The translations under genes were made by a program, and so were the position numbers. 51,439 nucleotides of DNA from a virus. Below the pieces are notes generated by a model. The model saw nothing but the letters and a program-made list of their open reading frames with translations, was not told the DNA's origin and did no database searches. Numbering within the stretch: position 1 is the first letter of the stretch; every line of letters begins with the position of its first letter. Positions 679-48,309 of the stretch are shown in pieces. The stretch lies in the IMG/VR virus record IMGVR_UViG_3300045988_173665, positions 1 through 51,439 of that record, one strand, 5' to 3'.

Positions 679-924
679 ATGTTAAAAATATTAATACCAA
701 TTATAATTATTGTTGTATTAGTAATTGTAAGAGTTGCGTATTCGTTTGGCGAAACTAAAGGAAGAGAAAAAATCTTTGCTAAAATATTTAGTGAGGTTTT
801 ATACAAGGTTTATAAAGACTCAATAAAAGAAACATTAATTAATGGTAGTCTTGAGGACTTACTCAATAATTTAAAATCTGAAATAAAAAAAGAAAGAGAG
901 AACGAAAATGATGATGATAAATAA
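679..924 (+). CDS. small membrane protein with one N-terminal transmembrane helix
   Basis: N-terminal hydrophobic stretch ILIPIIIIVVLVIVRV; an RBS GGGGGA lies upstream. Confidence 0.4.
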   Translation: MLKILIPIIIIVVLVIVRVAYSFGETKGREKIFAKIFSEVLYKVYKDSIKETLINGSLEDLLNNLKSEIKKERENENDDDK

Positions 925-1864
925 ACCAATGTTTATGAATTACTTTGAAGATGGTAATTTGTTACAACACGATAAAGATAAAGAAACTTTTGTTTTAAGC
1001 AAAACCGATGTATTAGGAAATTTTTGTTTAAATCAAGAAGGAATGGAAAAACTTTGCAAATTTATTGAAATGGCAAATGACAAATCAAAAGTTAAAGCAA
1101 AGTTAAATGGCACAATTTTAGAGGTTAAAATAGATGAGCCTAAATTAAAAGCTAATATTAATACTTTAAGTATTGATAATAAACCTCAATTAGATTTAAG
1201 CGAAGTAATTAGTAGTTTTACAATTAATGTTGATAAATTAAAAATAGCAAGTGCTTTTTCTGACAAAAAAGGTGTAAGAGCGGTTTTAAATGGTGTTTGT
1301 ATTAGAAATGGTTGGATTATGGCGACTGATAGTTTTAGTGCTTATAAAACACCTTGCGAAGATACTTCAGTTAATTTAGTTATTAATAACTCATTTATAA
1401 ATATTTTAAAAGAATTAAAAGGCAATATTAAACTTGAAACTGATGGAATGAAAATTTGGCACAAAAATGAAAATGGTTTAACTTACATTGGAAGATTGCT
1501 AAATGGAACGTACCCTAATATTGAAAATATTTACAATTCTATTAAGAATTTTGATACAACAACCCTAAACCTTGAACCGATATACAATATTTTTGCATTA
1601 TCAGGCTCAAATTCGTTAATTGGATTAACTTTAGATAAATTTTGTATAAATACTAGCACCACGTTTGTAAACTCTGAATTTGAGGGTATTTTTGACTTCA
1701 AATTTGAAAATGAATTTTGGTATAGTTCGACAATGTTGAAACTTGTTTTAAGTTTTATCGGTGATAAGAAAAATGTTAAACTTAACTTTTTACACGATAA
1801 TCCAACTAAACCTGCAATTGTAAATGATGAATTTTTAATTTTGCCTGTAAGAAAAATGGAATAA
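908..1864 (+). CDS. DNA polymerase III beta sliding-clamp-like protein (short, 318 aa)
   Basis: Clamp-like motifs: RAVLNGVCI...ATDSF, LETDGMKIW, the IGRLLNGTYPNIENIY motif (compare bacterial GRLIDGKFPDY), and a C-terminal LILPVR. Confidence 0.6.
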   Translation: MMMINKPMFMNYFEDGNLLQHDKDKETFVLSKTDVLGNFCLNQEGMEKLCKFIEMANDKSKVKAKLNGTILEVKIDEPKLKANINTLSIDNKPQLDLSEVISSFTINVDKLKIASAFSDKKGVRAVLNGVCIRNGWIMATDSFSAYKTPCEDTSVNLVINNSFINILKELKGNIKLETDGMKIWHKNENGLTYIGRLLNGTYPNIENIYNSIKNFDTTTLNLEPIYNIFALSGSNSLIGLTLDKFCINTSTTFVNSEFEGIFDFKFENEFWYSSTMLKLVLSFIGDKKNVKLNFLHDNPTKPAIVNDEFLILPVRKME

Positions 1865-1879
1865 AAATTAGTATATAAT

Positions 1880-1909
1880 TTGCAATTAATATATAAATTG
1901 TGATATAAT
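1880..1909 (+). promoter_or_regulatory. sigma-A-type promoter: TTGCAA, 18 nt, TGaTATAAT (extended -10)
   Basis: Sequence match to the -35/-10 consensus. It is followed by a ~150-nt leader before the RBS/ATG at 2064. Confidence 0.5.
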
Positions 1910-2063
1910 ATTAGTGTGGAAGTCATGAGCCACGAAAAACATAGTTGGTAGTATGTGCAAGTACTATTAACGACATATTACCGACTGAAAGGCACTTTAT
2001 GATATGGGTTGCACACCATTGATTAGAGTGCTTTTAATTTTAAATGAAAAAAAGGAGAATAGT

Positions 2064-2402
2064 ATGAAAAGTTATGAAATTTGGAAAGAAAATGTACATA
2101 TTAGTGACGTTTACAATGCCATAAAAAAGAATTGGGAATGGAATGTTACGGATGGATGTAGTTTTCCAGAAGCTGTTGAAATTGGAGAAATTAGTGAAAA
2201 AGCTTTGAAAAATCTAAAAGTACTTAATGCAACCGAGATTGCAACCATCAAAGTACGAGAGTATTTTAACAGAGATAACATTGATTATGATGAAGTTTCT
2301 TTAAATGAACTATATTATGTACGATCAAGAAAATTTGAAGTCTATTCAATTTGGGACTGGAAAGAAGAAAAAGTAATTGGCTATCTGGAGGATTTTGAAT
2401 AA
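2064..2402 (+). CDS. hypothetical protein (the track ORF begins at 2004; the RBS favours 2064)
   Basis: AAAGGAG RBS 7 nt upstream of the ATG at 2064. Confidence 0.45.
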   Translation: MKSYEIWKENVHISDVYNAIKKNWEWNVTDGCSFPEAVEIGEISEKALKNLKVLNATEIATIKVREYFNRDNIDYDEVSLNELYYVRSRKFEVYSIWDWKEEKVIGYLEDFE

Positions 2403-2773
2403 TGAATAACAGAAAAGCTGAGACACGTAAAATAGCACGTCGTATAATCACATATAGAGTCACGTATGATGCTAATATGAAATTTTATAAGCCTGAAATA
2501 GTGAATGTCACTTGCCTTACAGAATGCGATATATCTGAAGTGTCTGACTTAAATTTATTACTTAAGAATCAAACAGAAGCTATGGAAAAAAATGCAAAAA
2601 GATTGGTTAAGGAACTTGTTAAAAAGGAAGTCGACTTAAATTTGTATGAATATTTGGACTTGTTAGATGAACATATGAAAGAATACTATGTATGGGATTT
2701 TGAAGTCAGTGAATACTTTGCTTATGTTGGTAGCGTAAATAATAAAAATTGTAAATTATTAGGATATTTATAG
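2402..2773 (+). CDS. hypothetical protein
   Basis: ORF with an ATGA stop/start overlap with the upstream gene. Confidence 0.45.
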   Translation: MNNRKAETRKIARRIITYRVTYDANMKFYKPEIVNVTCLTECDISEVSDLNLLLKNQTEAMEKNAKRLVKELVKKEVDLNLYEYLDLLDEHMKEYYVWDFEVSEYFAYVGSVNNKNCKLLGYL

Positions 2774-2789
2774 AAGAGGAGATAAAAAT

Positions 2790-3407
2790 ATGAAATTTAC
2801 AGAAATTTTAGAAGAATTAAAAAAAGGCGAGAAAGTAACACGAGAAAAATGGGAAAAATCTGGCGACTCTTGTACTATCAATTTTATATCATATGATCCA
2901 AAAATAGGTAAATGTGTATTTTGGCTAAATGACGAGTATTTTGATGAGTTTATATGGCGTTATGAAGATATAATTGCAGAAGATTGGAAGATTTATGAAG
3001 AAAAACCAACACGAATATGGAAGCCTGAATTTGGTGAGAAATATTATTACATCACTACGAGGGGTGATGTAGCATATAATACTTTTAATAATTCTCTTGA
3101 TGAGTATAGATTAAGTTTTAGAAATGTTTTTAAAACTGCAGAAGAGGCAAGAAAAATGGTTGAAAAACTAAAAATTATTAATAAATTAAGAGAATTATCA
3201 AATGGTGATTTTTATCGAAATTGTACTGAAGTGAAATACGTAATATGGTATGATAGCGCATGTAAAGAAATTAAAATTAATACACATGAATATATTAGAG
3301 AATTACCATTTAGTATATATTTCGCAACTAAAAAAGATGCTGAAAAGGCTGTTTTAACAATTGGTGAAGATAACTTAAAGAAGTACTATTTTGATGTAGA
3401 GGATTAA
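2790..3407 (+). CDS. DUF2829 (Tad2-like) N-terminal domain protein with an unknown 130-aa C-terminal extension
   Basis: N-terminus MKFTEILEELKKGEKVTREKW ... IIAEDWKIYEE matches the DUF2829 hallmark (M.F.EAL.ALK.GKKV.R..W ... AEDWEIV); RBS AGAGGAG. Confidence 0.5.
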   Translation: MKFTEILEELKKGEKVTREKWEKSGDSCTINFISYDPKIGKCVFWLNDEYFDEFIWRYEDIIAEDWKIYEEKPTRIWKPEFGEKYYYITTRGDVAYNTFNNSLDEYRLSFRNVFKTAEEARKMVEKLKIINKLRELSNGDFYRNCTEVKYVIWYDSACKEIKINTHEYIRELPFSIYFATKKDAEKAVLTIGEDNLKKYYFDVED

Positions 3408-3411
3408 AATT

Positions 3412-3789
3412 ATGACAGATTTTAGAAAATTAAATGAAAACGTAAGAAAATATATTTGTAAGATTTATGTGAAAGATAATGAAAGCCGTTATGTGAGTTG
3501 GAATTATATAAGCCCAGCCAAAGATGAAGATGAAAAAATAACAAATTTAGAACAAATTGCTAGCAAGATGTTTCTTCGTGGTGGAATAGAGTATTTTGAA
3601 AAATGGATTGAAAGATTTCCAGCAATATTAGATGTGGCGGATTATTATGTAGGTGATGCTGTTGGAATATTACATAGCTTATATAATTTAACCGAAAGAG
3701 AAAGAAATGAAAGCACATTAACACATAGTGAGGCTTGCCACATAATCACAAAGTTAATTTTTGATTTTATTACTGGTCCTAATTATTAA
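3412..3789 (+). CDS. hypothetical protein
   Basis: ORF. Confidence 0.4.
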   Translation: MTDFRKLNENVRKYICKIYVKDNESRYVSWNYISPAKDEDEKITNLEQIASKMFLRGGIEYFEKWIERFPAILDVADYYVGDAVGILHSLYNLTERERNESTLTHSEACHIITKLIFDFITGPNY

Positions 3790-3794
3790 AAAGT

Positions 3795-4088
3795 TTGAAA
3801 GTAGGTAGAAAGCAAATGAGATTTGAAGATTTTGATTTTGATAAATGCCGTGTATTGTACACACACCAAATTTTAGCTAATTACATTTATTTTTTAATAA
3901 AAAACGAAGAAGTTGTTTATGTTGGGCAAACTTCAAAAGGAGTATGCAAAATATACCAACATTTAGTTAATAAAGATTTTGACAAAGTATATACATTATG
4001 GGTTAGTGATAAAAACGAATTGAACAAATTGAAAAAATTTTATATTTTAAAGTATAAACCAATTTATAATAAAAAATACAATTATTAA
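3795..4088 (+). CDS. small GIY-YIG domain protein
   Basis: IYFLIKNEEVVYVGQTS...YQH fits the GIY...YIG...R/H pattern of the GIY-YIG nuclease fold. Confidence 0.45.
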   Translation: MKVGRKQMRFEDFDFDKCRVLYTHQILANYIYFLIKNEEVVYVGQTSKGVCKIYQHLVNKDFDKVYTLWVSDKNELNKLKKFYILKYKPIYNKKYNY

Positions 4089-5005: not shown

Positions 5006-6382
5006 ATGAAATTATATAGTGAAAATGATAGTTATAAAATATATAACGGCGATATGCTTGATATGTTGCAAGTGATTGAGCCTGAAAGCATTGATGCAAT
5101 TGTTTGCGACCCACCATATGAATTGGGCTTTATGAATAAAAGTTGGGATAGCACTGGTATTGCATTTAAGAAAGAAACGTGGCAAAATTGTTTTGAGGTT
5201 TTAAAACCAGGTGGCTATTTGTTGGCTTTTGGTGGTTCGAGAACTTATCACAGAATTGCTTGTGCTATTGAAGATGCAGGCTTTGAAATAAGAGATTGTG
5301 TTATGTATTTTTATGGCACTGGCTTCCCAAAGTCATGTAATATTGGATTAGCAATAGACAAGAAAAATGGTGTTGAAAGTGAAGTAGTAGGTGTTGGCAA
5401 AAGTGGTTGTAATAGTAGAGCATATCAAAGTGAAAAACCTACAACAGCAGGCAATTATGACATAAAAAAATCTCAAAATGAATGGCAAGGTTGGGGGACA
5501 TGTTTGAAACCTGCATATGAACCTATAATTGTCGCAAGAAAGCCATTTAAAGGTAGTGTGGTTGATAATATAATCAAGTACAGAGTAGGTGGTTTGAATA
5601 TCGATGAATGTAGGATACCAACAAATGATGATTTAGCTAGAATTAATAGAACTGATAATGGTATGTTTGGCATAGGCAAAAATAATAACAATGCTCAAAA
5701 ATGTAAAGAATTAGGTATTGAATATGGTGGTCGTTTCCCAGCAAATGTAATAACAGATGGTAGCGAAGAAGTACGAAGTGGTTTGCCAGAAACAAAAAGT
5801 AGTGGTGGTAATTATACTATGCAAGATTTTTCAAACTTTAAAAGTTCTATGATGCATTTTACAGATAAAAAATGTGAAAAGCCAAGAATAAATTGTGATA
5901 AGCAATTCCCAATTGACAGTGGAAGTGCAATGAGATATTTTTATTCTGCAAAGGCTAGCAAGAAAGATAGAGATGAGGGGCTAGATGCTTTTGAAGAGCG
6001 AAAAACTACTGATGGTTGCATAAGAGCTAATGTAGAAACAGCAAGGAAATATGGTGCAAATTCTGCTTTAAGAAAAAACAACCATCCAACTTGCAAGCCA
6101 ACTGAATTAATGCAATATTTAGTTAGATTAGTTAGCCCAAAGGGTGCAACGATTTTAGACCCTTTTATGGGTAGTGGTAGTACTGGAAAAGCTGTAATGT
6201 TTGAAAATCGTGAGCGTGATGCAAATTATAAATTTATCGGTATTGAATTGACAGATGAATATTTGCCGATTGCACAAGCACGAATAGAATATGCACGTGA
6301 TAAGTTTAAGTACGATCTAGAGCAAGAAAAAGTTACAAAGGGCAAACAAAATATATTTGATTTTATGGAAAGTGAGGAATAG
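5006..6382 (+). CDS. beta-class amino-DNA methyltransferase (N6-adenine or N4-cytosine); orphan, with no cognate endonuclease nearby
   Basis: Motif IV IVCDPPYE lies N-terminal to motif I ILDPFMGSGSTGKA; the protein is 458 aa. Confidence 0.75.
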   Translation: MKLYSENDSYKIYNGDMLDMLQVIEPESIDAIVCDPPYELGFMNKSWDSTGIAFKKETWQNCFEVLKPGGYLLAFGGSRTYHRIACAIEDAGFEIRDCVMYFYGTGFPKSCNIGLAIDKKNGVESEVVGVGKSGCNSRAYQSEKPTTAGNYDIKKSQNEWQGWGTCLKPAYEPIIVARKPFKGSVVDNIIKYRVGGLNIDECRIPTNDDLARINRTDNGMFGIGKNNNNAQKCKELGIEYGGRFPANVITDGSEEVRSGLPETKSSGGNYTMQDFSNFKSSMMHFTDKKCEKPRINCDKQFPIDSGSAMRYFYSAKASKKDRDEGLDAFEERKTTDGCIRANVETARKYGANSALRKNNHPTCKPTELMQYLVRLVSPKGATILDPFMGSGSTGKAVMFENRERDANYKFIGIELTDEYLPIAQARIEYARDKFKYDLEQEKVTKGKQNIFDFMESEE

Positions 6383-6384
6383 TT

Positions 6385-6669
6385 ATGAAGAAAATTAAAG
6401 AAAATATAAATTTAAAAAAATTAGAAAAATACGGCTATGAAAAAGAAAATGCAATGTATGTTAAATATACAAATGACACATATTATGGTAGCCCAATAGC
6501 TATTACTATTAATGCTTATACAAGAATTATAGAAAAACGTTATTGTTGGACTTATATGTTTGGTCCAATACTTCATTCAAGTATTATGAGAAATAACAAG
6601 CCAGTTAAGGTTAATAAAAAATATATTCAAGATCTGATACAAGCTGGTTATATCGAGGAGGCAAAATGA
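6385..6669 (+). CDS. hypothetical protein
   Basis: ORF. Confidence 0.4.
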   Translation: MKKIKENINLKKLEKYGYEKENAMYVKYTNDTYYGSPIAITINAYTRIIEKRYCWTYMFGPILHSSIMRNNKPVKVNKKYIQDLIQAGYIEEAK

Positions 6670-6911
6670 AAAGAGAAGAATTAGAAAAATTTTTAGGTGC
6701 TAAAGTTACTATTACACTTGATAATGATGTATATGTATACAATGGCTTTTTGGCAGTAGCTAGCGATTGTGGATATTATTATTCTGGTGATATTATATAT
6801 TTTTTAATAGGCGAATTATCAAAACTGCCTATTTGCGTTTTTAAGAACTACCACGTAAAAAAATGCACTTTAGTACCAGAATTGGAAACTGACAGTAAAA
6901 GTGAAAAATAA
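6666..6911 (+). CDS. hypothetical protein
   Basis: ORF overlapping the upstream stop (ATGA). Confidence 0.4.
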   Translation: MKREELEKFLGAKVTITLDNDVYVYNGFLAVASDCGYYYSGDIIYFLIGELSKLPICVFKNYHVKKCTLVPELETDSKSEK

Positions 6912-6925
6912 TTAATGGAGGGAAT

Positions 6926-7339
6926 ATGAATAATTGGAAAGAATATAGAATTTATAAAGAAAACGTAAGGGGTATTCAAGATACATTACAACGAGCTAGA
7001 GAGCAAGTATCTAGAATTAATCGTGAACAAGAACATCGTGAATTTAATAGAATTGTAGGCATAGGCACAGCAGAACTGCCATATTCTTATGATTCTGATA
7101 TTTTTGAATATGAATATCGAAGATTAAAATCAAAAGAAACACCAATGTTAGTTGATTGCAGTAATTTCACTTATAAAGAATTTGCAAATGGGGAATTATA
7201 TTTTTGTCCTAAATGCTGTAATATGATTAAAAAAAGCTATTTTTATTGTCCTAATTGCGGGCAACGTTTACTATGGGTAAATATATACGATACGAAGGCA
7301 ACAACTGAAGATAACGAAAATGTAAAGAAAGGAGAATGA
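6926..7339 (+). CDS. zinc-ribbon protein
   Basis: CPKCC...CPNCG pairs; RBS GGAGGGAA. Confidence 0.45.
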   Translation: MNNWKEYRIYKENVRGIQDTLQRAREQVSRINREQEHREFNRIVGIGTAELPYSYDSDIFEYEYRRLKSKETPMLVDCSNFTYKEFANGELYFCPKCCNMIKKSYFYCPNCGQRLLWVNIYDTKATTEDNENVKKGE

Positions 7340-7345
7340 TTTAGG

Positions 7346-8047
7346 ATGAAACAAGCAATATTAATGAATTTTAAGCCTAAAGAGGTTCAAAAAATTTTAA
7401 ATGGTGAAAAAACCCTTGCTATTTCAAAAACAATGCCAAAATGTAAATTACCAATAGATGTTTATATTTATTGTTCAAGAGGGAAAGGAACAAAAAAATC
7501 GCCATCTTTATGTGCTACTCCTCATATAAATTGTAAAACTTTTGCTCCAATAACATATACATATAGTTTAAATGGATGGTACGAACCAAATTCATCACCA
7601 GTTCTTCAAATTTTAGATGGAAGAATTGTTGCTAAATTTACTTTAAAAGAAGTAGTTGGGTTTAAAGTCGATGATAAAGAAATTGATACAATAGTATTTG
7701 ATAATATTACTAGATTGTATTTTGAAGAAAAATCACTAGAATATATGACACAAGTTAGTTATGAAGAAATGGCAAAATATTTAAATGGTAAAAAAGGTTA
7801 TTTATCGTATATTGATAATCTTGAAATTTTTGATAAACAATTGAAATTAAATCGTTTTTGGGTAAAATGCGATTCTGAAACTGGTAAAGATTGCAAGCAT
7901 TGTTCTTTTTTTGTTTGTGAAAATAATGAAAGCGTAGGTCATGAAGAATGGTGTAATAGTGAACACGATCATATGAGAAGATTGAAAAAAGCACCATCAA
8001 ATTATCAATATGTATGGGTGGAAGAAAATGCAGATAGAAAAGATTAA
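7346..8047 (+). CDS. hypothetical protein, possibly ASCH/PUA-like at the N-terminus, with a Cys/His-rich C-terminus
   Basis: MKQAILMNFKPKEVQKILNGEKTLAI resembles ASCH-domain starts. The CKHCSFFVCEN...HEEWC cluster is Cys/His-rich. Confidence 0.3.
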   Translation: MKQAILMNFKPKEVQKILNGEKTLAISKTMPKCKLPIDVYIYCSRGKGTKKSPSLCATPHINCKTFAPITYTYSLNGWYEPNSSPVLQILDGRIVAKFTLKEVVGFKVDDKEIDTIVFDNITRLYFEEKSLEYMTQVSYEEMAKYLNGKKGYLSYIDNLEIFDKQLKLNRFWVKCDSETGKDCKHCSFFVCENNESVGHEEWCNSEHDHMRRLKKAPSNYQYVWVEENADRKD

Positions 8048-8699
8048 GCAAGAATTACAAAGCACTTTAGAAGAAATAAAAAAAGTTTATGAAGAAAACG
8101 ATGCGTTAGTAAAACCTAAAACTTTAAATGATGGCAAATACATGCAAATGATTAATACCAAGTTAAGATTTATTTTAGGCAATCCGAAAACTAACAAAAT
8201 TATGTCAACCAAAGAAGCAGATGAGTATTATTTTGACAAGAAAAAAGGTATTCAACATATGCAAGCAAGATATATGCTAATTTTAGAATTGCAACAATAT
8301 ATCACTGAAGAAACAATGTTACCATTTATTTATGATAGATATATGGTATGTAAAATATTACAAATAAGTTATAGTACTTATAATATGTATATTGATGATG
8401 CAAATAATAATATGAATTTAAACGGCAATGATGAAGTAGGCGATTTATTTTTAGATATTGAAAGTATGTTGCTTTCTGATAGAATCTCAAGTGCAGAAAA
8501 CAAAATTAAAGATGGTTCATCGATTGATAGAACAAATCGATACAAAAAGCAAAATGGTGGTTTTGGTGTTACGTTTGAAAAAGATACTTCAAGAGATGGC
8601 AAGAAAGAAATCATAGTAAGCACTGAAGATGCACAAAAGAAGTTAAGTACGTTTGGTTTTTCACAAATTTTAATAGAAAATAACGAAAAAAAAGAGTAA
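8028..8699 (+). CDS. hypothetical protein (track ORF 8010..8699; the ATG at 8028 is the plausible start)
   Basis: ORF. Confidence 0.4.
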   Translation: MQIEKIKQELQSTLEEIKKVYEENDALVKPKTLNDGKYMQMINTKLRFILGNPKTNKIMSTKEADEYYFDKKKGIQHMQARYMLILELQQYITEETMLPFIYDRYMVCKILQISYSTYNMYIDDANNNMNLNGNDEVGDLFLDIESMLLSDRISSAENKIKDGSSIDRTNRYKKQNGGFGVTFEKDTSRDGKKEIIVSTEDAQKKLSTFGFSQILIENNEKKE

Positions 8700-8704
8700 A
8701 AGTA

Positions 8705-8733
8705 TTGACAAATAAATAAAATAGGTGTAAAAT
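8705..8733 (+). promoter_or_regulatory. promoter TTGACA, 17 nt, gTGTAAAAT. Nearly identical to the promoters at 50829 and 10449
   Basis: Sequence agtattgacaaata...aggtgtaaaatggtggtgt is shared with 50826-50865. Confidence 0.6.
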
Positions 8734-8779
8734 GGTGGTGTACTTTTTGAAAGAGAGTGCGTGATTGGAGAGATAGAAT

Positions 8780-9418
8780 ATGATTTATAGTTATCAAAGA
8801 GTGAGTTCAAAAGAACAAAATCTTGCACGACAAGAAGAAGCGTTTGAAAAGTGGTGCAATGAAAATGGTATTAATTCAAAAGATTGTTTAATATTTGCCG
8901 ACAAACAAAGTGGTAAGGATTTTGAAAGAAAGAATTATCAATTAATGTTGGAAGAACTTAAACAAGGCGATGTATTAGTAATTAAATCAATTGATCGTTT
9001 AGGAAGAAATTATGATCTAATCATTGCAGAATGGACTAAAATTACAAAAAGTATTAAAGCCGATATAGTTGTAATTGATATGCCACTACTTGACACTAGA
9101 GATAAAAAAGAAAACTTAACAGGTAAGTTTATAAGTGATATAGTATTACAATTATTAAGTTATGTTGCAGAAACTGAAAGAAATAATATTAAGCAACGAC
9201 AACGTGAGGGCATCGACATAGCATTACAAAATGGTGTTAAGTTTGGTGCAAAAGAAAAAATCACTAATCAAGAAGAAATTGACGATTTTAAAAATGATTA
9301 TATATCAGGTATGAAATATATAGATATTCAAAATAAGTATAATTTAACAAAACCAACAATTATAAATATGGCAAAAAAACTTGGTTTACCAAGTAGAAAT
9401 AATAAAGCTGAAAAATAA
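8780..9418 (+). CDS. small serine recombinase (resolvase/invertase family, 212 aa)
   Basis: N-terminus IYSYQRVSSKEQNLARQ carries the catalytic Ser. Also GDVLVIKSIDRLGRN, and a C-terminal HTH (LTKPTIINMAKKLGL). Confidence 0.8.
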   Translation: MIYSYQRVSSKEQNLARQEEAFEKWCNENGINSKDCLIFADKQSGKDFERKNYQLMLEELKQGDVLVIKSIDRLGRNYDLIIAEWTKITKSIKADIVVIDMPLLDTRDKKENLTGKFISDIVLQLLSYVAETERNNIKQRQREGIDIALQNGVKFGAKEKITNQEEIDDFKNDYISGMKYIDIQNKYNLTKPTIINMAKKLGLPSRNNKAEK

Positions 9419-9504
9419 TTATAGAATGGAGAAAATAATGAGTACAAATATTTCAAAAGAAAAGAGATAAATCGTTGTAAATAAAATTTGAACAAAAATT
9501 ATAG

Positions 9505-9532
9505 GTGCTTGCACCTCCTGCATTGCAGGTGT
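9505..9532. promoter_or_regulatory. imperfect palindrome GGTGCTTGCACCTCCTGCA-T-TGCAGGTG. A candidate serine-recombinase crossover/binding site
   Basis: Inverted arms CACCT(cct)GCA / TGCAGGTG around a central A/T, about 90 bp downstream of the recombinase stop. Confidence 0.3.
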
Positions 9533-9815
9533 TTCTACTGCCTTGTGTAGTTAGAATAAGAAAAATAAACCGCTACTCTGTATCATTTTTCCCCTACCTT
9601 TACACAGAGCCAAATAAACAAATTTTTCTAAAGAAAGGCGGAGTTGTTTTCATAATTTCATCTTTGCTAGTAAGATGTCATGTATCCTTTTCTATTATTA
9701 GTTAGTTAGTTTTTAAATTTAACCCCCAATAATTATAATTTAATAGCAAAAAGAAATATTTATTTGTTTACAACAAAAGTTTGATTTACTAGCGGTCAAA
9801 CTTTTTATTTTTTAC

Positions 9816-9844
9816 TTGACAAACATATATTATGGTGGTATAAT
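9816..9844 (+). promoter_or_regulatory. promoter TTGACA, 17 nt, TGgTATAAT
   Basis: Consensus match. Preceded by the inverted repeat AAAAGTTTGA...TCAAACTTTT. Confidence 0.55.
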
Positions 9845-9848
9845 ACAA

Positions 9849-9888
9849 GTGTTTTTGTTGATTGACATAAAAACACCTCCTTTTTTTG
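9849..9888 (+). terminator. hairpin GTGTTTTTG...AAAAACAC followed by a T7 run, right after the 9816 promoter. A very short transcript or an attenuator
   Basis: 8-bp stem with a 12-nt loop, then CTCCTTTTTTT. Confidence 0.4.
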
Positions 9889-9935
9889 ATACAAGTTTTT
9901 TTGGTTTCTTTATAAAAACCATTATTCCCCTATTA

Positions 9936-9966
9936 AAGCAAGCTGGAAACGGTTTGCTTTTTTGTT
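9936..9966 (+). terminator. rho-independent terminator-like hairpin AAGCAAgctggaaacggTTTGCTT plus a T-run
   Basis: Stem-loop followed by TTTTTTG. Confidence 0.4.
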
Positions 9967-10448
9967 TTATTTAATCAAGCCAAAAAAAGGGTATTATTTT
10001 GATTTTAACCACTATACCCTTGATAATTTATCACTTTGAAATAGAAAATTTGAAAAATAGCCAAAATTTAGGCTCATTTACGAAAATACAACCGATTTAA
10101 ACATTGATATTTTCAATAATACTAAAAAATTTACTGAGTTAAATTTATGACACACCCCCTTTAGAAAAATATATAGTGCATAATATTTTTTTGAAAAAAG
10201 GTATTAAAATATAAAGTTCTAAAAATTTGCAACAGCAAAATTAGGATACACCCCTTTTTGGTAGTCTCAAATAGCAACACAAAAAATTTCAAAAAGTAGG
10301 GCAATAACTCAAAATTGCATTTAACAAGTTATTAATCAAAAATTACCTATTTAAAATAGTGATAATTTTAATAAAAAATGCGTGTTTTAGTTGTGGTTAT
10401 CTTTCACAATATGAAAACGTTTACATAAAAAATAATGTATAAAAGGTA

Positions 10449-10477
10449 TTGACAAATTTATTAAAAAAGTGTAAAAT
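10449..10477 (+). promoter_or_regulatory. promoter TTGACA, 17 nt, gTGTAAAAT
   Basis: Same -10 element as the promoters at 8705 and 50829; it drives the gene at 10516. Confidence 0.55.
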
Positions 10478-10515
10478 ATAAGTGCCTTTTAAAAATAAGG
10501 CAGGAGGTTAATTTT

Positions 10516-10833
10516 ATGAAAAAATACTATTTAAATGAAGAAGAAATCACAAAGGAAGAATTTAACGAGCAGCTAGAAGGATGCATCACCGAATATGTTG
10601 ACAATAACTACGATGATTTACTAGACGAAGACAACGAAGAATACCGAATAGGCTATTTGACATTTTCGGCAAGCGAGGTATTGAAAAACTGTGATCCTGT
10701 TGCTTACCGCTGCGGCTTCAGTGACTACGAAAGCGAAGTTTTGGAAGAAGCAGAAAATGAGCTAGAAAATAGCGGTTATTATGAAATTGATGGCGACACT
10801 TTCAAAATTGAAGAAGATGAAGAAGAGGAGTAA
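10516..10833 (+). CDS. highly acidic small protein (Asp/Glu-rich)
   Basis: Strong RBS AGGAGG; a 105-aa protein with a large excess of D/E. Confidence 0.5.
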   Translation: MKKYYLNEEEITKEEFNEQLEGCITEYVDNNYDDLLDEDNEEYRIGYLTFSASEVLKNCDPVAYRCGFSDYESEVLEEAENELENSGYYEIDGDTFKIEEDEEEE

Positions 10834-10838
10834 AAAAC

Positions 10839-11045
10839 ATGAAGATAACAGATTTTAAAAAAGATTTTTTTTATAAAGGCGGCAGAATAACGCATAAAGA
10901 TTGGCCATCAAATACTACAATAGGGATGCATAAAGGGAAATTTTTTTACTTTTTTAACGGGAAAATATATAAAAAACAACCCGTTATATTTGACATGTAC
11001 TATTTGCTTTCTGAAAATTGGGAACCAGTTGAAAGCATATTATAA
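10839..11045 (+). CDS. hypothetical protein
   Basis: ORF 6 nt after the upstream stop. Confidence 0.4.
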   Translation: MKITDFKKDFFYKGGRITHKDWPSNTTIGMHKGKFFYFFNGKIYKKQPVIFDMYYLLSENWEPVESIL

Positions 11046-11072
11046 TTTATTAATATAAAGAGGTATTAAAAA

Positions 11073-11213
11073 ATGAATAAAGTTAAAAAAAGAATACTAG
11101 ATGATCTAAAACTAACAGAAAAACAAAAAAAAGAACTAGAGAAAATAAAAAAATATTTAGAAAAAGAAAATGAAAAAGCAAGAGAACGCCAAAAAGAAAG
11201 GGGTGTTAGGTAG
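11073..11213 (+). CDS. small Lys/Glu-rich protein (~46 aa), not in the ORF track
   Basis: RBS AAGAGG 8 nt before the ATG; followed by a clean terminator. Confidence 0.35.
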   Translation: MNKVKKRILDDLKLTEKQKKELEKIKKYLEKENEKARERQKERGVR

Positions 11214-11284
11214 TGCTGATATTATGGGCATTTTTTTGGTTTTTCTGTTATTTAGTTGCAAATCAAAAGTAATAATTTTAAAAA

Positions 11285-11310
11285 GAAAGCAGTTAAAAGC
11301 TGCTTTTTTC
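11285..11310 (+). terminator. rho-independent terminator AAAGCAGttaaaagCTGCTTT plus a T-run
   Basis: 7-bp stem, 7-nt loop, then TTTTTTCTTTTTTT. Confidence 0.6.
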
Positions 11311-12171
11311 TTTTTTTAGTTTCCTACAAACGCTCTAAAATCGAACGAATGCATAAATATTCAACTTTTCAAATCTCAATCGCTTACAAGGGGCTTTTAA
11401 AGTTTAAAATTAATAATAGTAGTTGATCAATAATTGATCAATTTAACAAAATTATAAATAAACATGTTTCTAATTAATAGTTAACTTTTTGACTGCTAAT
11501 AAAAAATAACTAATTTAAAATTAGCTAATAAATAACTAGCTAATAATTTATGAATGCTTAACTTTTAATTAATAAATCAAATGTTAAAAATTAAAGTTGT
11601 ATAATAAATAGCTTTTAAATTATATTGCTAAAATATAACTGTTTAAATTATAACATGATTATAAATGTAAATAATATAAATTATTATATATTAATTTATA
11701 AAAAACTATGATATTTTTGTCTTGCTTAACGACTGAATTTTTGCGATTTTTTCCTACACATATTATATATATAATTATAATTTTTTTAAAAAAGTATAGT
11801 AAAAATCAAAAATAAACATTAAAAAAGTAAAATAAAGTACACTTTGTTAAACTTTACGCAAAATAGCCAAAATTAAAATAAGCCTAAAAAAAGGCTAAAT
11901 TTAAAGTTTTACCATATGGGTGTTTGTAATTTATCACAAAAACAAATAAAATTTAAAAATAAGCGGTTTTTAAGGCTCAAATTTGAAAATGGAAGTATAA
12001 GAAAGAACGAGAATACAAGAAAATACCAAAAAACCCCCCCTACCCTATTTTTTGAAAGTTTATAAGGTAGTATCATTACCCCTTCCCCATTTCTCTACTA
12101 TTTTTCGTTCAACAAAACCTTGTTTCGTTTTCACGCTACGCTTTTAATTTCACAAAATCTTTTTTGACCTC

Positions 12172-12200
12172 TTGCCAAAAGAAAATTTCTGTGGTATACT
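12172..12200 (+). promoter_or_regulatory. promoter TTGCCA, 17 nt, TGgTATACT
   Basis: Consensus-like hexamers upstream of the GC-richer membrane-protein gene. Confidence 0.45.
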
Positions 12201-12235
12201 TTAATCACGAGCAAAGGAGAAACGAGGCGATAGCG

Positions 12236-12565
12236 GTGTGGATTATCAGTGTTGTAAAATTTTTGAATAAGTTGCCAAAAGGGTTGCGAGTAGTGATCTA
12301 TGTGTTGTTAGGTCTGACAGTGGTTTTTTGGGTGATGTTTTTGTTAGCTCAAATTTTGGAAGTTGTCAGAAAGGTCGTGCATTGGATGTCGCAAAAGTCG
12401 GTTTTTTGGACTGGCTTTTATGCCCTGATAATTTTGTGTGTTGGGACTTTTTTAGTTGCAGAATTTGTGTTGCATTTAGGATGGTGGGACAAGTTAGTCG
12501 CTTTTTTCACAAATTGGTTTAATGTCGTACGTGAATTTATTGGTGGAAAGATATCAGGTAAATAA
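12236..12565 (+). CDS. small multi-pass membrane protein. Local GC content is noticeably higher than in the rest of the genome
   Basis: The track ORF 12164..12565 starts at a TTG inside the promoter. The GTG at ~12236 with GAGG 8 nt upstream is more plausible. There are two to three hydrophobic helices. Confidence 0.45.
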   Translation: MWIISVVKFLNKLPKGLRVVIYVLLGLTVVFWVMFLLAQILEVVRKVVHWMSQKSVFWTGFYALIILCVGTFLVAEFVLHLGWWDKLVAFFTNWFNVVREFIGGKISGK

Positions 12566-12794
12566 AATGAAACACGTGGGTGCGTGTAAAACGTTCGACA
12601 AAGTATCTATGTGTATGATAATATTAATTTTGACCAAGCAGTAAGGTCATTAAATAATATCTGTATGGATCATACTGTAGATTGCTTCGGCACTATGGTT
12701 AAAAAAGAATATTATAACTTTGTATACTAGAAAGGCTTGGGTAATGCCTAAATCCAAATATTTCATTTAGTAGGTTATAATATTTATAATAGTT

Positions 12795-12838
12795 CCCACC
12801 ACGCCTCTGATTTAAGCGTACCATGGTGGGCCTTTTTA
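12795..12838 (+). terminator. terminator-like hairpin CCCACCA...TGGTGGG plus CCTTTTT
   Basis: 7-bp GC-rich stem with a long loop, followed by a T-run. Confidence 0.35.
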
Positions 12839-12850
12839 TTCGTATGTTTC

Positions 12851-12879
12851 TTGACAAAAATTTAAAAGCGTGGTATAAT
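12851..12879 (+). promoter_or_regulatory. promoter TTGACA, 17 nt, TGgTATAAT
   Basis: Consensus match. The downstream sequence resembles the promoter at 13027 (a tandem pair). Confidence 0.55.
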
Positions 12880-13026
12880 GTAGGTGCTTCAAGTATTTGA
12901 GGCTCTATCAATCACTATATAAATATATTTATTTCATCTTCCAAAAAAATGAATTTATATGTATTTATGTCACGTTCTTTCAGAAAAAGGCTTGCATTAA
13001 AAAAATTGAAAATGTGAGTTTTTTTC

Positions 13027-13056
13027 TTGACAAGGCTTGGACAAGTGTTGTATAAT
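13027..13056 (+). promoter_or_regulatory. promoter TTGACA, 18 nt, TGTATAAT
   Basis: Consensus match immediately upstream of the RBS AGGAGG for the gene at 13086. Confidence 0.55.
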
Positions 13057-13085
13057 GTAGTTGCTTTTTCAAGAGGAGGTAAAAA

Positions 13086-13604
13086 ATGAAATTAAGCGAT
13101 TTTAAATATGATGAACTAAAAAAAAGAGTGGAAGAAATGAATATTAAAAAGAAATTAAAAGATTTAACTTTTGAAGAGTTTGCCGAATGGGCACGTAAAA
13201 ATTGTTCTAATATTAGCTGCAGTTCTTGTATTTTTTGTAACGTGAAATGTGTTGTTGGCAATTCAAAATGTTGGGTAAATCATAAAGGTCTGTATTCTGA
13301 TAAATTCCTAGACCAAGAAATAGAAATAGAAATACCTGATATTTTAACTCCTAATATTATAACTAAAGAAGAGAAGAAATATTTGGAAAATGTTATTAAA
13401 CCAGTAAAAAATAAAGTTAGGTCGATTACAAAAAGGCAAAGTAAAAATAGCACTATAGCGTATATACACATATCTATTGATAATAGTGATCTAGATTGTA
13501 GTTTTGATAGTATAACTTTGAATTACTCTAAAGCCGATACTGCATATGTTAATATGGAGTCAAATAGAGAATATAAGTTAGAAGAATTAGGATTATTTGA
13601 ATAG
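13086..13604 (+). CDS. Cys-rich hypothetical protein; paralogue of 15534..15998
   Basis: Shares KHKxLYSDxFLDQEIEIEI...KKYL...ELGL with the ORF at 15534. Confidence 0.5.
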   Translation: MKLSDFKYDELKKRVEEMNIKKKLKDLTFEEFAEWARKNCSNISCSSCIFCNVKCVVGNSKCWVNHKGLYSDKFLDQEIEIEIPDILTPNIITKEEKKYLENVIKPVKNKVRSITKRQSKNSTIAYIHISIDNSDLDCSFDSITLNYSKADTAYVNMESNREYKLEELGLFE

Positions 13605-15533: not shown

Positions 15534-15998
15534 ATGATAATTAAAAAGAAATTAAGAGATGTCACTCCGAGTGAATATAGAGAATGGGAAAAAAAGCATT
15601 GTGCTTTAAATACAATAGATTGTGCAAATTGTGCTTTTCATTACGTTATGTGCCGTAGTTGGGGACCTTCTTGGGTAAAGCATAAGAATTTATATTCAGA
15701 TAACTTTTTAGATCAAGAAATAGAAATTGAAATTAAAGATGTTTTAGATGAAGTAGAAAAGAAATATCTAAAATCAATAATTAGACCTTTTAAAGATAGA
15801 GTTGAATATATTGATAAAAAAAAGGGTGGAAATTGTACTGATAGTAGCACTTTTTATTATATTGCAATAACGATTAAAAGTATTACTAGTGATTGTGTAA
15901 ATGAAACAATATGTTTTCCATTTTTTAAGCCAGAAAGCAAAATGTATGAAGGTATGGAGCTCAACAAAAAATACACATTAAAAGAATTAGGATTATAA
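15534..15998 (+). CDS. Cys-rich hypothetical protein; paralogue of 13086..13604
   Basis: Conserved block HKNLYSDNFLDQEIEIEIKD. Confidence 0.5.
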   Translation: MIIKKKLRDVTPSEYREWEKKHCALNTIDCANCAFHYVMCRSWGPSWVKHKNLYSDNFLDQEIEIEIKDVLDEVEKKYLKSIIRPFKDRVEYIDKKKGGNCTDSSTFYYIAITIKSITSDCVNETICFPFFKPESKMYEGMELNKKYTLKELGL

Positions 15999-16029
15999 AA
16001 ATAAACACAAGAAAGGAAAATAAATAAAA

Positions 16030-17268
16030 ATGCATGACTTAAAAATATTTACAACTAATATAGAGCAAGAAGCAATTAATCAAATAGAATTATTATTATC
16101 ACAAGAAGCTTTTAAAGATTGTAAAATACGAATTATGCCTGATGTACACGCAGGAGCAGGATGTGTTATTGGCTTTACAGGTAATTTGGGTGATAAAGTA
16201 ATCCCTGAAATTGTAGGTGTTGATATTGGGTGTGGCATGTTAACAGTGGAATTAGGTAAATGTGATATTGATTTAAAATTATTAGATGAATATATAAAAG
16301 AAAATATTCCTAGTGGTCGTAATATTTATTCTGATGAAAAAGTTGATGAAATTAATATTTATAAGGTTGAAAAAATGATTGAACAACTTTATTGTAAAGA
16401 CAAACTAGTTAATATTGATTGGCTTAAAAACTCTTTAGGAACTTTAGGTGGTGGTAATCATTTTATAGAAATTGATACTGATGAAGAGGGTAAAAAATAT
16501 TTAATTATTCACACGGGTTCTAGAAATTTAGGAAAGCAAGTTGCGGAAATTTATCAAGACATCGCTATTAAAAATTGTTCTTTTGAAAAAGAAATGCGAG
16601 AAGAAATTAAAAATTTAATTGCTAATTATAAGTTATCAGGAAGGCAAAAAGAAATCGAAGAGGGTATCTTAAATATAAGAAATAAATACAATGGACTTAC
16701 AAAGCTTCCAAAAGATTTATGTTATCTAGAAGGTGTTGATAGAGAAAATTATTTACACGATATGAAAATTTGTCAAGAATTTGCAAAGTGGAATAGAAGA
16801 ATTATAGTGGAAAACATTTTGGCTTATTTACATAATTATCAAAATTGTGATTTAACTTTATATGAATATAATTATTTTGATACAATTCACAATTATATTT
16901 CTTTTGAAGATAATATTGTTAGAAAAGGGGCTATTGAAGCATATGATAATGGCAAATTATTATTAATACCCATGAATATGCGTGATGGTTGTATTATTGC
17001 AAAAGGTAAAGGAAATAAAGATTGGAATTGTTCTGCTCCACACGGTGCTGGTAGAATAATGTCTAGAGCTGCTGCTAAGAGCAATTTAGATGTAAAAGAA
17101 TTTGAAAAGTCTATGGAAAATATTTATACTACTACAGCAAATGAATTAACTATAGATGAAGCACCTATGGCTTATAAACCAGCTCAAGAAATTATTGATA
17201 ATATTATAGATACGGTTGAAATAATTAAAATTATTAAACCTATCTATAATTTCAAAGCCACTGAATAA
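16030..17268 (+). CDS. rtcB: RtcB-family RNA ligase (3'-phosphate/5'-OH)
   Basis: IMPDVHAGAG, GVDIGCGM, GGGNHFIE, SAPHGAGRIMSR and DEAPMAYKP match conserved RtcB active-site blocks. Confidence 0.85.
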   Translation: MHDLKIFTTNIEQEAINQIELLLSQEAFKDCKIRIMPDVHAGAGCVIGFTGNLGDKVIPEIVGVDIGCGMLTVELGKCDIDLKLLDEYIKENIPSGRNIYSDEKVDEINIYKVEKMIEQLYCKDKLVNIDWLKNSLGTLGGGNHFIEIDTDEEGKKYLIIHTGSRNLGKQVAEIYQDIAIKNCSFEKEMREEIKNLIANYKLSGRQKEIEEGILNIRNKYNGLTKLPKDLCYLEGVDRENYLHDMKICQEFAKWNRRIIVENILAYLHNYQNCDLTLYEYNYFDTIHNYISFEDNIVRKGAIEAYDNGKLLLIPMNMRDGCIIAKGKGNKDWNCSAPHGAGRIMSRAAAKSNLDVKEFEKSMENIYTTTANELTIDEAPMAYKPAQEIIDNIIDTVEIIKIIKPIYNFKATE

Positions 17269-17294: not shown

Positions 17295-18194
17295 ATGGGA
17301 GTCAAAGTAGATTTTAAAGTAAACGTTCCACATGGGGAGATGGACATAACAGAGAATGGGCAATATGATGTTAGCGATTATGCGATTGCGAATGTTAATG
17401 TTGACAATAAAGAACAAATATGCAATGCAGAGGTTACAATACCTATTGATAATTTGAAAGAAGCTATAAATAATTATTCTAATATATGGGTCGATGATAC
17501 AAATGGGTTAAAAGATTTTATTATTGCACAACAAGGCAAAATTAAACTAACAATTAACACTTTAATAGGTGCTTTGTATATGACACTATATCCTACACTT
17601 TGGAAAGATGATACAAACGGTAGTTATAATTATCAAGGCTCGCTATACATTGAGCAAGATTTAAGTGCAATTGGTGGTTCAGATTATAATCAAATTGTAG
17701 TTAGAGCGATTGCGTGGGATAATAGCAAATACGTAGCATTTAGACCTACGATAATACCAGTTGAAAAGCAAAGTAGCGGCGGTGGAAAATACTCTAATCA
17801 CTTGCATTATGATATACATTTAGAAGGCACTTGGGATACTTCAAATCAAATAATGACTTTTGACACAGCTACTCAAAATGCAGTTAAAGCGTTATTAGAT
17901 AAATTGGATGAATTAACTGTAAGTGATAACTATGATTTTCTAGTAAATATGCGTGTAGCAGGTAAAGCTTCTGCAGAAGGTGATATAGCATTAATAGGTG
18001 CAAATATGAAACTTAATTATATTCCAGGCACATGTGCTGTAAGAAATCTACAAACACAGTTTATACTAAACGTTAATAATCCAGATACAGCAAAAATAGT
18101 AATCACTAATACTGATTTTTCTTCAAATAATGAATCATTCTACTCTTTCATAACTGGTATGTATGTAGTATTCCAATTTGATATAAACTATTAG
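17295..18194 (+). CDS. hypothetical protein
   Basis: ORF with RBS. Confidence 0.45.
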   Translation: MGVKVDFKVNVPHGEMDITENGQYDVSDYAIANVNVDNKEQICNAEVTIPIDNLKEAINNYSNIWVDDTNGLKDFIIAQQGKIKLTINTLIGALYMTLYPTLWKDDTNGSYNYQGSLYIEQDLSAIGGSDYNQIVVRAIAWDNSKYVAFRPTIIPVEKQSSGGGKYSNHLHYDIHLEGTWDTSNQIMTFDTATQNAVKALLDKLDELTVSDNYDFLVNMRVAGKASAEGDIALIGANMKLNYIPGTCAVRNLQTQFILNVNNPDTAKIVITNTDFSSNNESFYSFITGMYVVFQFDINY

Positions 18195-19342: not shown

Positions 19343-19766
19343 AGAAGATTTAGTATTAGGCTGTAAAGTTGTTTGCAATGGTTATTTGAAAAAAACTAAA
19401 ATGAAATATTGCTTACCAAAACTGGATATTGAAGATTATGAGCCAGAGCAATTAAAGGTTATTAGCAATGTTGGTAATTCTGAAGGTATTAAGTATTTAA
19501 AACTTAACGAAGAGTTTGAGCAAGAGCAATACGAAGTAGTGAAATTGGCTAAACCATTTACTGGTGTATTAGTAGGAACGCAAAAGGTATTTACTAAAAA
19601 GCACTTTAAATGCGAAAATGATTTTGTTGATTATGCAGATAATTTACTAACACAAATTAAGCCGTACACAAAAAAAGAAGATTTGCAATTTGTAGCAAAG
19701 GTATATTTCAAAAAAGGACAATCAAGATTAGTTCCTTTAGAAATGGTGGAATTAATTAATGATTAG
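19335..19766 (+). CDS. hypothetical protein
   Basis: ORF. Confidence 0.4.
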   Translation: MNREDLVLGCKVVCNGYLKKTKMKYCLPKLDIEDYEPEQLKVISNVGNSEGIKYLKLNEEFEQEQYEVVKLAKPFTGVLVGTQKVFTKKHFKCENDFVDYADNLLTQIKPYTKKEDLQFVAKVYFKKGQSRLVPLEMVELIND

Positions 19767-19989
19767 CATCGAAGAAGTAATGGCATCAATGGTTAAACAA
19801 AAAATGTCGATAAGAGAGATTGCCAAAAAAATTGGAATGCCTAAATCGACATTGCACCTAAAACTACAAAATTTTGCAAAAAAGAACCCTAAATTGCCTT
19901 TAGTAATACAATACAACGATTTATTAAATAGTAATATATTAAGTATGCACTCTAAAGGTGGTAAAAATAGTTACAAAAATCGAAAATAA
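19759..19989 (+). CDS. small HTH protein
   Basis: MSIREIAKKIGMPKSTLHLKL is HTH-like. Confidence 0.4.
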   Translation: MISIEEVMASMVKQKMSIREIAKKIGMPKSTLHLKLQNFAKKNPKLPLVIQYNDLLNSNILSMHSKGGKNSYKNRK

Positions 19990-22370: not shown

Positions 22371-22428
22371 AAGGCGATTTTAAGACTTCCACTTGTCCTA
22401 GTGTGTCATTTTGAAAGGAAAAAAGATT

Positions 22429-38302: not shown

Positions 38303-38319
38303 TAAGGCGGATTTTGGAA

Positions 38320-43558: not shown

Positions 43559-43672
43559 CTAATTAATTATTAGTATTTTAGGGAGATTAAAATATCCTAC
43601 TTTCAAAGGCATAGAGAATAATCTTCCTATGCCTTTTATTATCAAATTAAAATTATTAAAAAGGAGTTTAAA

Positions 43673-48308: not shown

Positions 48309-48309
48309 A

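Follow-up and report, generated by a model that had tools for sequence, protein, structure and literature searches.

What does a phage with a small genome gain from a gene for an RNA ligase of the RtcB family? The gene in question, rtcB, lies at 16030..17268 on the plus strand of IMG/VR virus record IMGVR_UViG_3300045988_173665, whose 51,439 nucleotides were analyzed as one stretch (the window). An earlier note, made from the letters of this DNA, had described it as a phage-encoded, full-length RtcB with a plausible function in counter-defence or translation maintenance. We confirmed that the window protein is RtcB on four counts, namely Pfam, PHROG, the catalytic residues and the predicted fold. 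For its function, counter-defence or translation maintenance by resealing of cut RNA is the best-supported reading. In the form that we favour, to which we give a probability of about 0.6, a stand-alone RtcB would be made in lytic growth and would reseal RNA breaks caused by metal-independent host RNases.

The open reading frame (ORF) runs from ATG to TAA over exactly this interval and encodes 412 amino acids, and by ORF and homology it was assigned to the RtcB-family 3'-phosphate/5'-OH RNA ligases. A profile search against Pfam PF01139 (RtcB), which the earlier note had named as a check, gave E 3e-63 and 215 bits against a cutoff of 27. The alignment spans profile positions 14-425 of 426, so the protein is indeed full-length for its family. 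It also matched PHROG 1075 "tRNA splicing ligase" with E 1e-128. A sequence search of the PDB returned RtcB/RTCB chains only, and the three aligned blocks hold the D-x-H, D-x-x-C, N-H, H-T-G-S-R and H-G-A-G-R motifs of Pyrococcus horikoshii RtcB. The leader at 16004..16029 (plus strand), read directly from the sequence, carries a GAAAGGA ribosome-binding site ~11 nt before the ATG. This ORF is more than a chance one.

To place the catalytic residues, we aligned the window RtcB with Escherichia coli RtcB (MG1655 reference sequence), with which it shares 34% identity. Nine residue pairs were found (window/E. coli): D65/D75, C68/C78, N143/N167, H144/H168, H161/H185, R165/R189, H287/H281, H338/H337 and R342/R341. 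They are carried by the motifs VDIGCG (D65/C68), GGGNHF (N143/H144), HTGSR (H161/R165), IHNY (H287) and HGAGR (H338/R342). The metal-binding set of E. coli (D75, C78, H168, H185 and H281) is thus present as D65, C68, H144, H161 and H287. All nine paired residues are invariant across 34 subfamily members, which bears out the claim that every active-site block is present. The metal-binding and GMP-histidine roles are those that we take the E. coli residues to have; the enzymology behind these roles was reportedly established by Tanaka and Shuman in 2011 and by Chakravarty et al. in 2012 (both cited in PMC9304027 and PMC7824862). H338, within SAPHGAGRIMSR, lines up with STCHGAGRVLSR of 1uc2/4dwq and with E. 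coli H337. E. coli H337 and P. horikoshii H404 are presumably the nucleophilic histidines that accept GMP, and H338 in HGAGR is the predicted GMP-accepting histidine of the window protein. The window RtcB is probably active as a ligase.

An AlphaFold2 model of the window RtcB, built from a 34-sequence alignment, had a mean pLDDT of 78.5 and a pTM of 0.79. When it was compared with the PDB by Foldseek, the 14 best matches were all RtcB/RTCB structures (E 7e-16 to 2e-8, TM ~0.5-0.6), and the next match after them had an E of 0.17. Model confidence was low in the active-site loops 36-45 and 332-339, so the model confirms the fold and not its fine geometry. Both the alignments and the model place a helical insertion of ~40 amino acids, relative to E. 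coli RtcB, at 16570..16701 (plus strand; codons 181-224), with model helices at 165-182, 186-201 and 206-220. Because cellular orthologs have the same insertion, it marks a Bacillota clade and not phage ancestry.

The gene is kept by purifying selection. Codon comparison with five relatives gave ratios of nonsynonymous to synonymous substitution rates (dN/dS) of 0.10-0.23. These figures bear on the idea that rtcB is an inactive or decaying passenger, functionless in this phage. Nothing specific speaks for decay, although the neighbouring genes are mosaic between close relatives. Against it stand the intact frame, the retention of every catalytic residue, and dN/dS of 0.10-0.12 when the comparison is limited to relatives at 96-97% identity. 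We therefore regard a functionless gene as barely credible.

For the resealing of cut RNA that we favour, homology predicts a reaction in three steps. His338 would be guanylylated using Mn2+ and GTP. The GMP would then be moved to an RNA 3'-phosphate, a 2',3'-cyclic phosphate, if present, being hydrolysed first. Finally, a 5'-OH end would attack, and the normal 3'-5' bond would be restored. At the level of sequence and fold, the window protein has what an enzyme able to seal 2',3'-cyclic-phosphate/5'-OH breaks needs for RNA repair in counter-defence. The target breaks would be made by anticodon nucleases, by HEPN-type abortive-infection or CRISPR-associated RNases, or by toxin RNases firing on infection. 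The gene would be expressed along with the rest of the lytic gene string, in which it precedes the packaging genes, and translation would last long enough for the lytic cycle to be completed. With no tRNA genes in the genome, the substrates can only be RNAs of the host (tRNA and perhaps rRNA) or transcripts of the phage itself. Family, fold, catalytic residues, purifying selection and phage context are shown by the analysis, whereas we infer the enzymatic activity, the substrate, the timing and the benefit to the phage.

To see how common such a gene is in phages, we searched 50,697 deposited phage records in translation. An RtcB homolog was found in 673 of them, and 623 of these match at least 80% of the query length. 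The 673 records include 221 of Mycobacterium, 59 of Bacillus and 58 of Listeria phages. Product names, where given among the matches listed, were usually "tRNA splicing ligase" or RtcB. Among deposited phages, the best match, with 60.8% identity, was to Dulem virus 39, which comes from lemur faeces; homologs from Bacillus, Clostridioides and Listeria phages showed ~46-47% identity over 99% of the length.

Protection by phage RtcB against a host defence that cleaves tRNA was proposed in 2011 for Cluster K1 mycobacteriophages (PMC3203893). In 2021, the proposal that RtcB counters tRNA cleavage was generalised in work on jumbo phages (PMC7824862). Erwinia phage RAY has an RtcB homolog that localises to the cytoplasm, outside the phage nucleus (PMC10299810), which fits a role on the translation apparatus. 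Phage RtcB is thus not new: it is well known as an accessory gene of phages, and the idea of counter-defence goes back more than ten years. Given 673 phage records and a hypothesis twice in print, the finding in the window is real but ordinary, and it matters little as a discovery. Its modest value lies in offering a clean system for testing: the genome is complete, small and free of tRNA genes, and has a single stand-alone RtcB.

The window was also scanned for genes that accompany RtcB elsewhere. ARAGORN found no tRNA gene in the whole genome, and Rfam gave no match at the gathering threshold and just two weak ones at a permissive E<=1. The earlier statement that no tRNA gene lies nearby therefore holds genome-wide. 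Archease, RtcA, RtcR, PrfH, Pnkp and a second ligase were all absent from Pfam or PHROG scans of every ORF, so that for Archease, too, absence from the neighbourhood widens to every ORF scanned. The cellular orthologs of the clade likewise stand alone, without an adjacent Archease, rtcA or rtcR; missing partners are thus normal for this RtcB clade, and the lack of Archease is not notable. Ligases of relatives, used as direct queries (phmmer, tblastn) against the window, gave negative results. A second ligase or end-healing enzyme in the window was rejected, with Pfam, phmmer and tblastn all negative.

These scans set the window gene apart from several known arrangements. It is not part of an rtcBA-rtcR operon, as the RtcA cyclase and the RtcR regulator are both absent from the genome scans, and Archease-assisted tRNA splicing finds neither an Archease nor a tRNA gene in the genome. 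The curated NCBIfam subtypes fit no better. The window RtcB scored 119 against a cutoff of 407 for PRK09588 (NF007153), and 140 against 1050 and 47 against 1150 for the intein-containing NF052663 and NF038162. For TIGR03073 (release-factor-H-coupled) it scored 97 bits against 271.8, with a partial, N-terminal match. No ORF of the genome matched an RF-1/PrfH domain, and identity with the PrfH-coupled RtcB2 was rejected on the TIGR03073 score and the missing PrfH. Among the PADLOC-DB defence models there was no match for RtcB, and its nine neighbours gave one marginal match (E 0.0085); membership in a defence system was rejected on this negative result.

We also looked at the relatives of the protein. 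A homolog search gave at least 8,000 matches, and the 120 listed are nearly all 394-450 amino acids long and 61-97% identical to the window RtcB. The window RtcB belongs to a very large, well-conserved Bacillota RtcB clade, which is very common among gut Bacillota phages and prophages. In species-representative genomes, the clade extends over Clostridia, uncultured Bacilli and "Tenericutes" metagenome-assembled genomes (MAGs), Tissierellia and Terrisporobacter; the nearest genome copies, at 63-65% identity, are from the uncultured Bacilli and "Tenericutes" MAGs. Three cultured genomes carry a stand-alone chromosomal rtcB at 54-57% identity, surrounded by housekeeping genes: in Terrisporobacter it lies with FtsZ and an FMN oxidoreductase, in Tissierella with a homoserine dehydrogenase and a Cys/Met PLP enzyme, and in Wansuia with DHFR and flagellar rod genes. 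In two members of the family the RtcB match is divided. In a gut phage (MT835481.1, 59229-61370) the RtcB match comes in two pieces over 2,142 nt, implying an insertion of ~900 nt, and a 616-amino-acid homolog (P0012) has two RtcB stretches and no other Pfam domain. An intein in P0012 was considered and rejected, as Pfam shows RtcB alone, in two stretches.

One alternative is a general upkeep of RNA that is unconnected with defence. The phage enzyme would then add to the RtcB of the cell and keep tRNA, rRNA or the long polycistronic transcripts of the phage intact under infection stress, with breaks coming, for example, from housekeeping RNases or from toxin-antitoxin systems released as host transcription collapses. 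This would suit an enzyme that shares a clade, and the same helical insertion, with the stand-alone Bacillota RtcBs, and that has no defence- or antidefence-specific partner beside it. The Rtc system has also been described as upholding the translation apparatus under stress (PMC12606134, PMC7790460). However, toxin RNases that infection sets free are themselves a defence in effect, which makes such maintenance hard to tell from the counter-defence that we favour, and the repeated acquisition of rtcB by unrelated phage lineages suggests a selective pressure specific to phages. We consider RNA maintenance of this general kind possible, though unlikely.

For the genomic context of the resealing enzyme that we propose, the 6 kb around rtcB had no match among deposited phages in a nucleotide search, so the context was taken from protein-level relatives. 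IMG/VR held 202 relatives, and 80 were fetched. Around 65 of these 80 form one lineage of 75-80 kb, in which rtcB lies immediately upstream of the large terminase gene. This lineage (L017-L085) consists of very abundant gut phages, mostly from one metagenome collection. Its loci carry a tRNA cluster (Gln, Met, Thr, Tyr, Ser) at ~700-3800, 3-5 kb upstream of rtcB, and then, at 6001-11000, rtcB, the large terminase, a sigma-70 region-4-like protein and an SPP1-type portal. Overall, tRNA genes lie within ~6 kb of rtcB in 16 of 30 scanned loci. They look phage-borne in 15 of the 16, mostly as the cluster of the 75-80 kb lineage; in the remaining locus (L004), they are host tRNAs beside an integrase.

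Other ligases were also found beside rtcB. L002, a phage contig of 60 kb, encodes an RtcB with 75% identity; in its region 10001-13410, rtcB is directly followed by a 437-amino-acid ATP-dependent DNA ligase (DNA_ligase_A_M plus an OB domain), then by a 135-amino-acid ORF and a NADAR-domain protein, and a DUF488 protein comes further downstream. This island looks like one for nucleic-acid repair or anti-ADP-ribosylation. In another relative (L006), the gene after rtcB encodes a PF09414 RNA_ligase (52 bits), and in 11 loci a weakly RLIG1-like protein precedes rtcB. The tRNA clusters and ATP-dependent ligases beside rtcB in relatives give circumstantial support to RNA repair, a reading with which purifying selection on rtcB and its place in the lytic gene string also agree.

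The same loci could be read in another way, as pointing to DNA ends or to phage-specific RNA. RtcB would then seal or cap 3'-phosphate DNA breaks in replication or packaging, or would join or circularise phage RNA. Ligation and capping of DNA 3'-phosphates are documented for RtcB paralogs, reportedly by Maughan and Shuman in 2015 (cited in PMC9304027); one relative has an ATP-dependent DNA ligase and a NADAR protein after rtcB, and the 75-80 kb lineage has rtcB directly upstream of the large terminase. Yet the window has no DNA-repair partner for it, and its genome offers no structured RNA candidate, a structured RNA substrate having been rejected on the Rfam results above. As for the terminase, its surroundings are merely the site where accessory genes gather in these genomes. 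We give a role on DNA ends or phage-specific RNA a very small probability.

To find conserved partners of rtcB, we clustered the four genes on each side of it in 86 loci. No neighbour is conserved across lineages, and within the 75-80 kb lineage the sole conserved neighbours are the terminase, the sigma-r4-like protein and the portal. An obligate RtcB partner was rejected, as nothing is conserved outside that lineage. The gene behaves as an independent cassette.

Small accessory genes, rtcB among them, make up the block of the window that separates replication from packaging, and the terminase follows 3,140 bp downstream of rtcB. Gaps of 31 nt to the upstream gene and 26 nt to the downstream gene flank it, with no promoter or terminator of its own in them, and no terminator-like site was found on the plus strand from ~13 kb to 20.4 kb. 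Two perfect sigma-70-type promoter matches (12/12 in a consensus scan) lie on the plus strand at 12851-12879 and 13027-13056. They are the nearest strong candidates upstream of the gene string, and rtcB may belong to their transcription unit. It is likely, as we infer, to be co-transcribed with the surrounding genes.

This arrangement bears on whether rtcB benefits a lysogen instead, as a so-called moron. In that case, RtcB expressed from a prophage would shield the lysogen from tRNases and rRNases of competitors, of the colicin or contact-dependent inhibition (CDI) type. Many homologs do lie within integrated prophages. Examples come from bacterial contigs with lengths of 175 and 345 kb; there, rtcB comes after integrase, repressor, DnaB_2, ERF and SSB and before the terminase, on the same strand. 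Over 80 genome loci, a blast search for phage hallmarks, which is insensitive, was positive for 11, a lower bound on prophage context. A protective role of this sort has a precedent in RtcB2-PrfH, which repairs colicin E3-type ribosome damage in E. coli (PMC9304027). However, rtcB is not moron-like in the window: it is tightly embedded in a string running in the lytic direction, and it is on the replication/packaging strand there as it is in the prophages. Genome scans detected no integrase or CI-type repressor, just a 212-amino-acid resolvase/invertase, and PrfH is missing. A benefit to the lysogen is thus very unlikely.

Four points weigh against the resealing of RNA cut by host RNases, the reading that we prefer. 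In the literature searched, whose coverage is incomplete, there was no experimental demonstration of any phage RtcB countering defence. As no neighbour is conserved across lineages, the context names no specific target RNase. The cellular orthologs at ~55% identity mark RtcB as a general housekeeping tool, and the phage copy could serve any need for joining RNA ends. Finally, the four NCBIfam subtype scores are so far under their cutoffs that the window RtcB is no equivalog of any curated RtcB subtype.

The genome around rtcB is that of a tailed phage (caudovirus). An exact 119-bp direct repeat, with bases 1-119 equal to bases 51321-51439, indicates a complete, circularly assembled phage genome with a unit of 51,320 bp. 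The G+C content is ~29%, and nearly all genes are on one strand. The first 9.4 kb hold a replication module with a DnaD-like replication protein, a DNA methyltransferase (5006..6382) and the resolvase/invertase. Packaging and structural genes follow with the large terminase at 20408, the portal at 22411, the major capsid protein at 24972 and the tape measure at 29488; together with the terminal repeat, these uphold the description of rtcB as phage-encoded. A recombination module at 45.5-49 kb comprises an SMC-like ATPase, a weak RecT and a metallo-beta-lactamase (MBL)-fold protein. The best explanation is a phage of a low-GC gut Bacillota host. Look-alikes of two sporulation regulators point to an endospore-forming or related Bacillota host: at 45191-45556 (plus strand) a protein similar to the Spo0A C-terminal domain (33.8 bits against a cutoff of 25), and at 19759-19989 (plus strand) a weak SpoIIID-like HTH protein.

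Immediately upstream of rtcB lies a 154-amino-acid Cys-rich ORFan (15534..15998, plus strand), a paralog of 13086..13604 (plus strand); the two share 44% identity and a motif NLYSD(K/N)FLDQEIEIEI. Immediately downstream of rtcB lies a 299-amino-acid ORF (17295..18194, plus strand) with no function assigned and no link to RNA repair, whose counterpart in L001 carries DUF285/LRR_5. In the two phage contigs with 96-97% identical RtcBs (L001 and L007), the downstream gene order is kept and the upstream genes are mosaic. The Cys-rich upstream gene is found downstream of rtcB in L007 and is absent from L001, an instance of local mosaicism. The paralog pair was considered as an RtcB cofactor and rejected, as it has no family match, switches side in L007 and is missing from L001.

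Further upstream, 9420-13085 is a gene-poor, AT-rich region whose G+C drops as low as 0.21 over 11-12 kb. Perfect sigma-70-type promoter matches occur at three places in it (9816, 12851 and 13027), along with terminator-like hairpins on the plus strand at 9935 and 11283 and several short AT-rich tandem repeats; the region could serve in regulation or as an origin. Between a TATAAT-like box and the promoter at 12851, the plus strand carries a sub-threshold match to the Rfam abiF RNA motif RF03085 (12795-12831; 28.8 bits against a gathering threshold of 37, E 0.39 over the whole window). It consists of a CCCACCA...TGGTGGG hairpin and then a T-run. L001 has the hairpin with one substitution, and L007 has it in identical form. 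The hairpin may be no more than a terminator, and to read it as a decoy for AbiF/AbiD-type RNase systems would be speculation.

Several other genes recall anti-defence or mobile functions. A 205-amino-acid protein in the replication module (2790-3407, plus strand) matches Tad2-like PF11195 over its N-terminal 68 residues (33.9 bits, cutoff 25), and is a candidate anti-defence protein of the Thoeris anti-defence 2 type. The MBL-fold protein at 48283-49023 (plus strand) matches Lactamase_B with 39 bits and the anti-Pycsar Apyc1 family below threshold (26, cutoff 50), and adjoins the weak RecT and the SMC-like ATPase. Downstream of the tail genes, a 286-amino-acid membrane-like protein (38314-39171, plus strand) has a weak match to the superinfection exclusion protein SieB (20.3 bits against a cutoff of 26). 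I-TevI DNA-binding and NUMOD1 matches in a 325-amino-acid ORF at 42094-43071 (plus strand) suggest a homing-endonuclease-like protein. The gap after it, 43072-43672, is ~600 nt without an ORF and with locally reversed GC skew, and no Rfam intron model matched around 42094-43672.

One broader proposal draws on some of these genes. In this phage, which lacks tRNA genes, end-healing enzymes and Archease, RtcB by itself would act broadly as an antidote against abortive infection of the HEPN or anticodon-nuclease type, within a multi-pronged anti-defence set that also has the Tad2-like protein (2790..3407), the methyltransferase and possibly the abiF-like RNA as a decoy against AbiF/AbiD-family RNases. 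If true, it would be the first time that RtcB could be studied by experiment as a gene dedicated to anti-defence in a phage. The side observations that the proposal builds on are weak, and we hold it to be quite unlikely.

Compared with known systems, the proposed resealing of RNA breaks by the window RtcB follows the same logic as the repair by T4 Pnkp and Rnl1 of damage from the PrrC anticodon nuclease, in which 2',3'>P/5'-OH breaks are resealed to save translation. The T4 enzymes are unrelated to RtcB and heal the RNA ends before an ATP-dependent sealing step; RtcB, which uses GTP, seals them directly. T4 repair is proven by experiment, whereas the role of the window RtcB is a proposal. With E. 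coli RtcB, the window protein aligns at all metal-binding, guanylylation and phosphate-binding residues, and the same three-step GTP/Mn2+ chemistry is presumed. It has the 181-224 insertion and lacks the E. coli-specific loops, and, unlike E. coli rtcBA under RtcR, the window has neither the RtcA cyclase nor RtcR/sigma-54 regulation. The RtcB2-PrfH module contains an RtcB paralog to which the window protein is related by the partial N-terminal TIGR03073 match; the window has no PrfH/RF-1 protein.

The cellular RtcBs of Bacillota (Terrisporobacter, Tissierella, Wansuia) share with the window protein its length and the ~40-amino-acid insertion, and they too have no rtcA, rtcR or Archease gene beside them. 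Their genes are on chromosomes, in the company of housekeeping genes such as those for FtsZ, homoserine dehydrogenase and DHFR, whereas the window copy is viral. The phage RtcBs of PHROG 1075, such as those of Dulem virus 39, Bacillus phages CAM003, Hoody T and Deep Blue, Clostridioides phage phiCD211, Listeria phages and Cluster K1 mycobacteriophages, have the family, the full-length architecture and the tRNA-repair hypothesis in common with it. Cluster K1 mycobacteriophages couple RtcB with phage tRNA genes (PMC3203893), whereas the window genome is tRNA-free. The cultured phages listed as carriers of RtcB are mostly large, at 130-165 kb, whereas the window genome carries its RtcB in 51 kb and with no second ligase.

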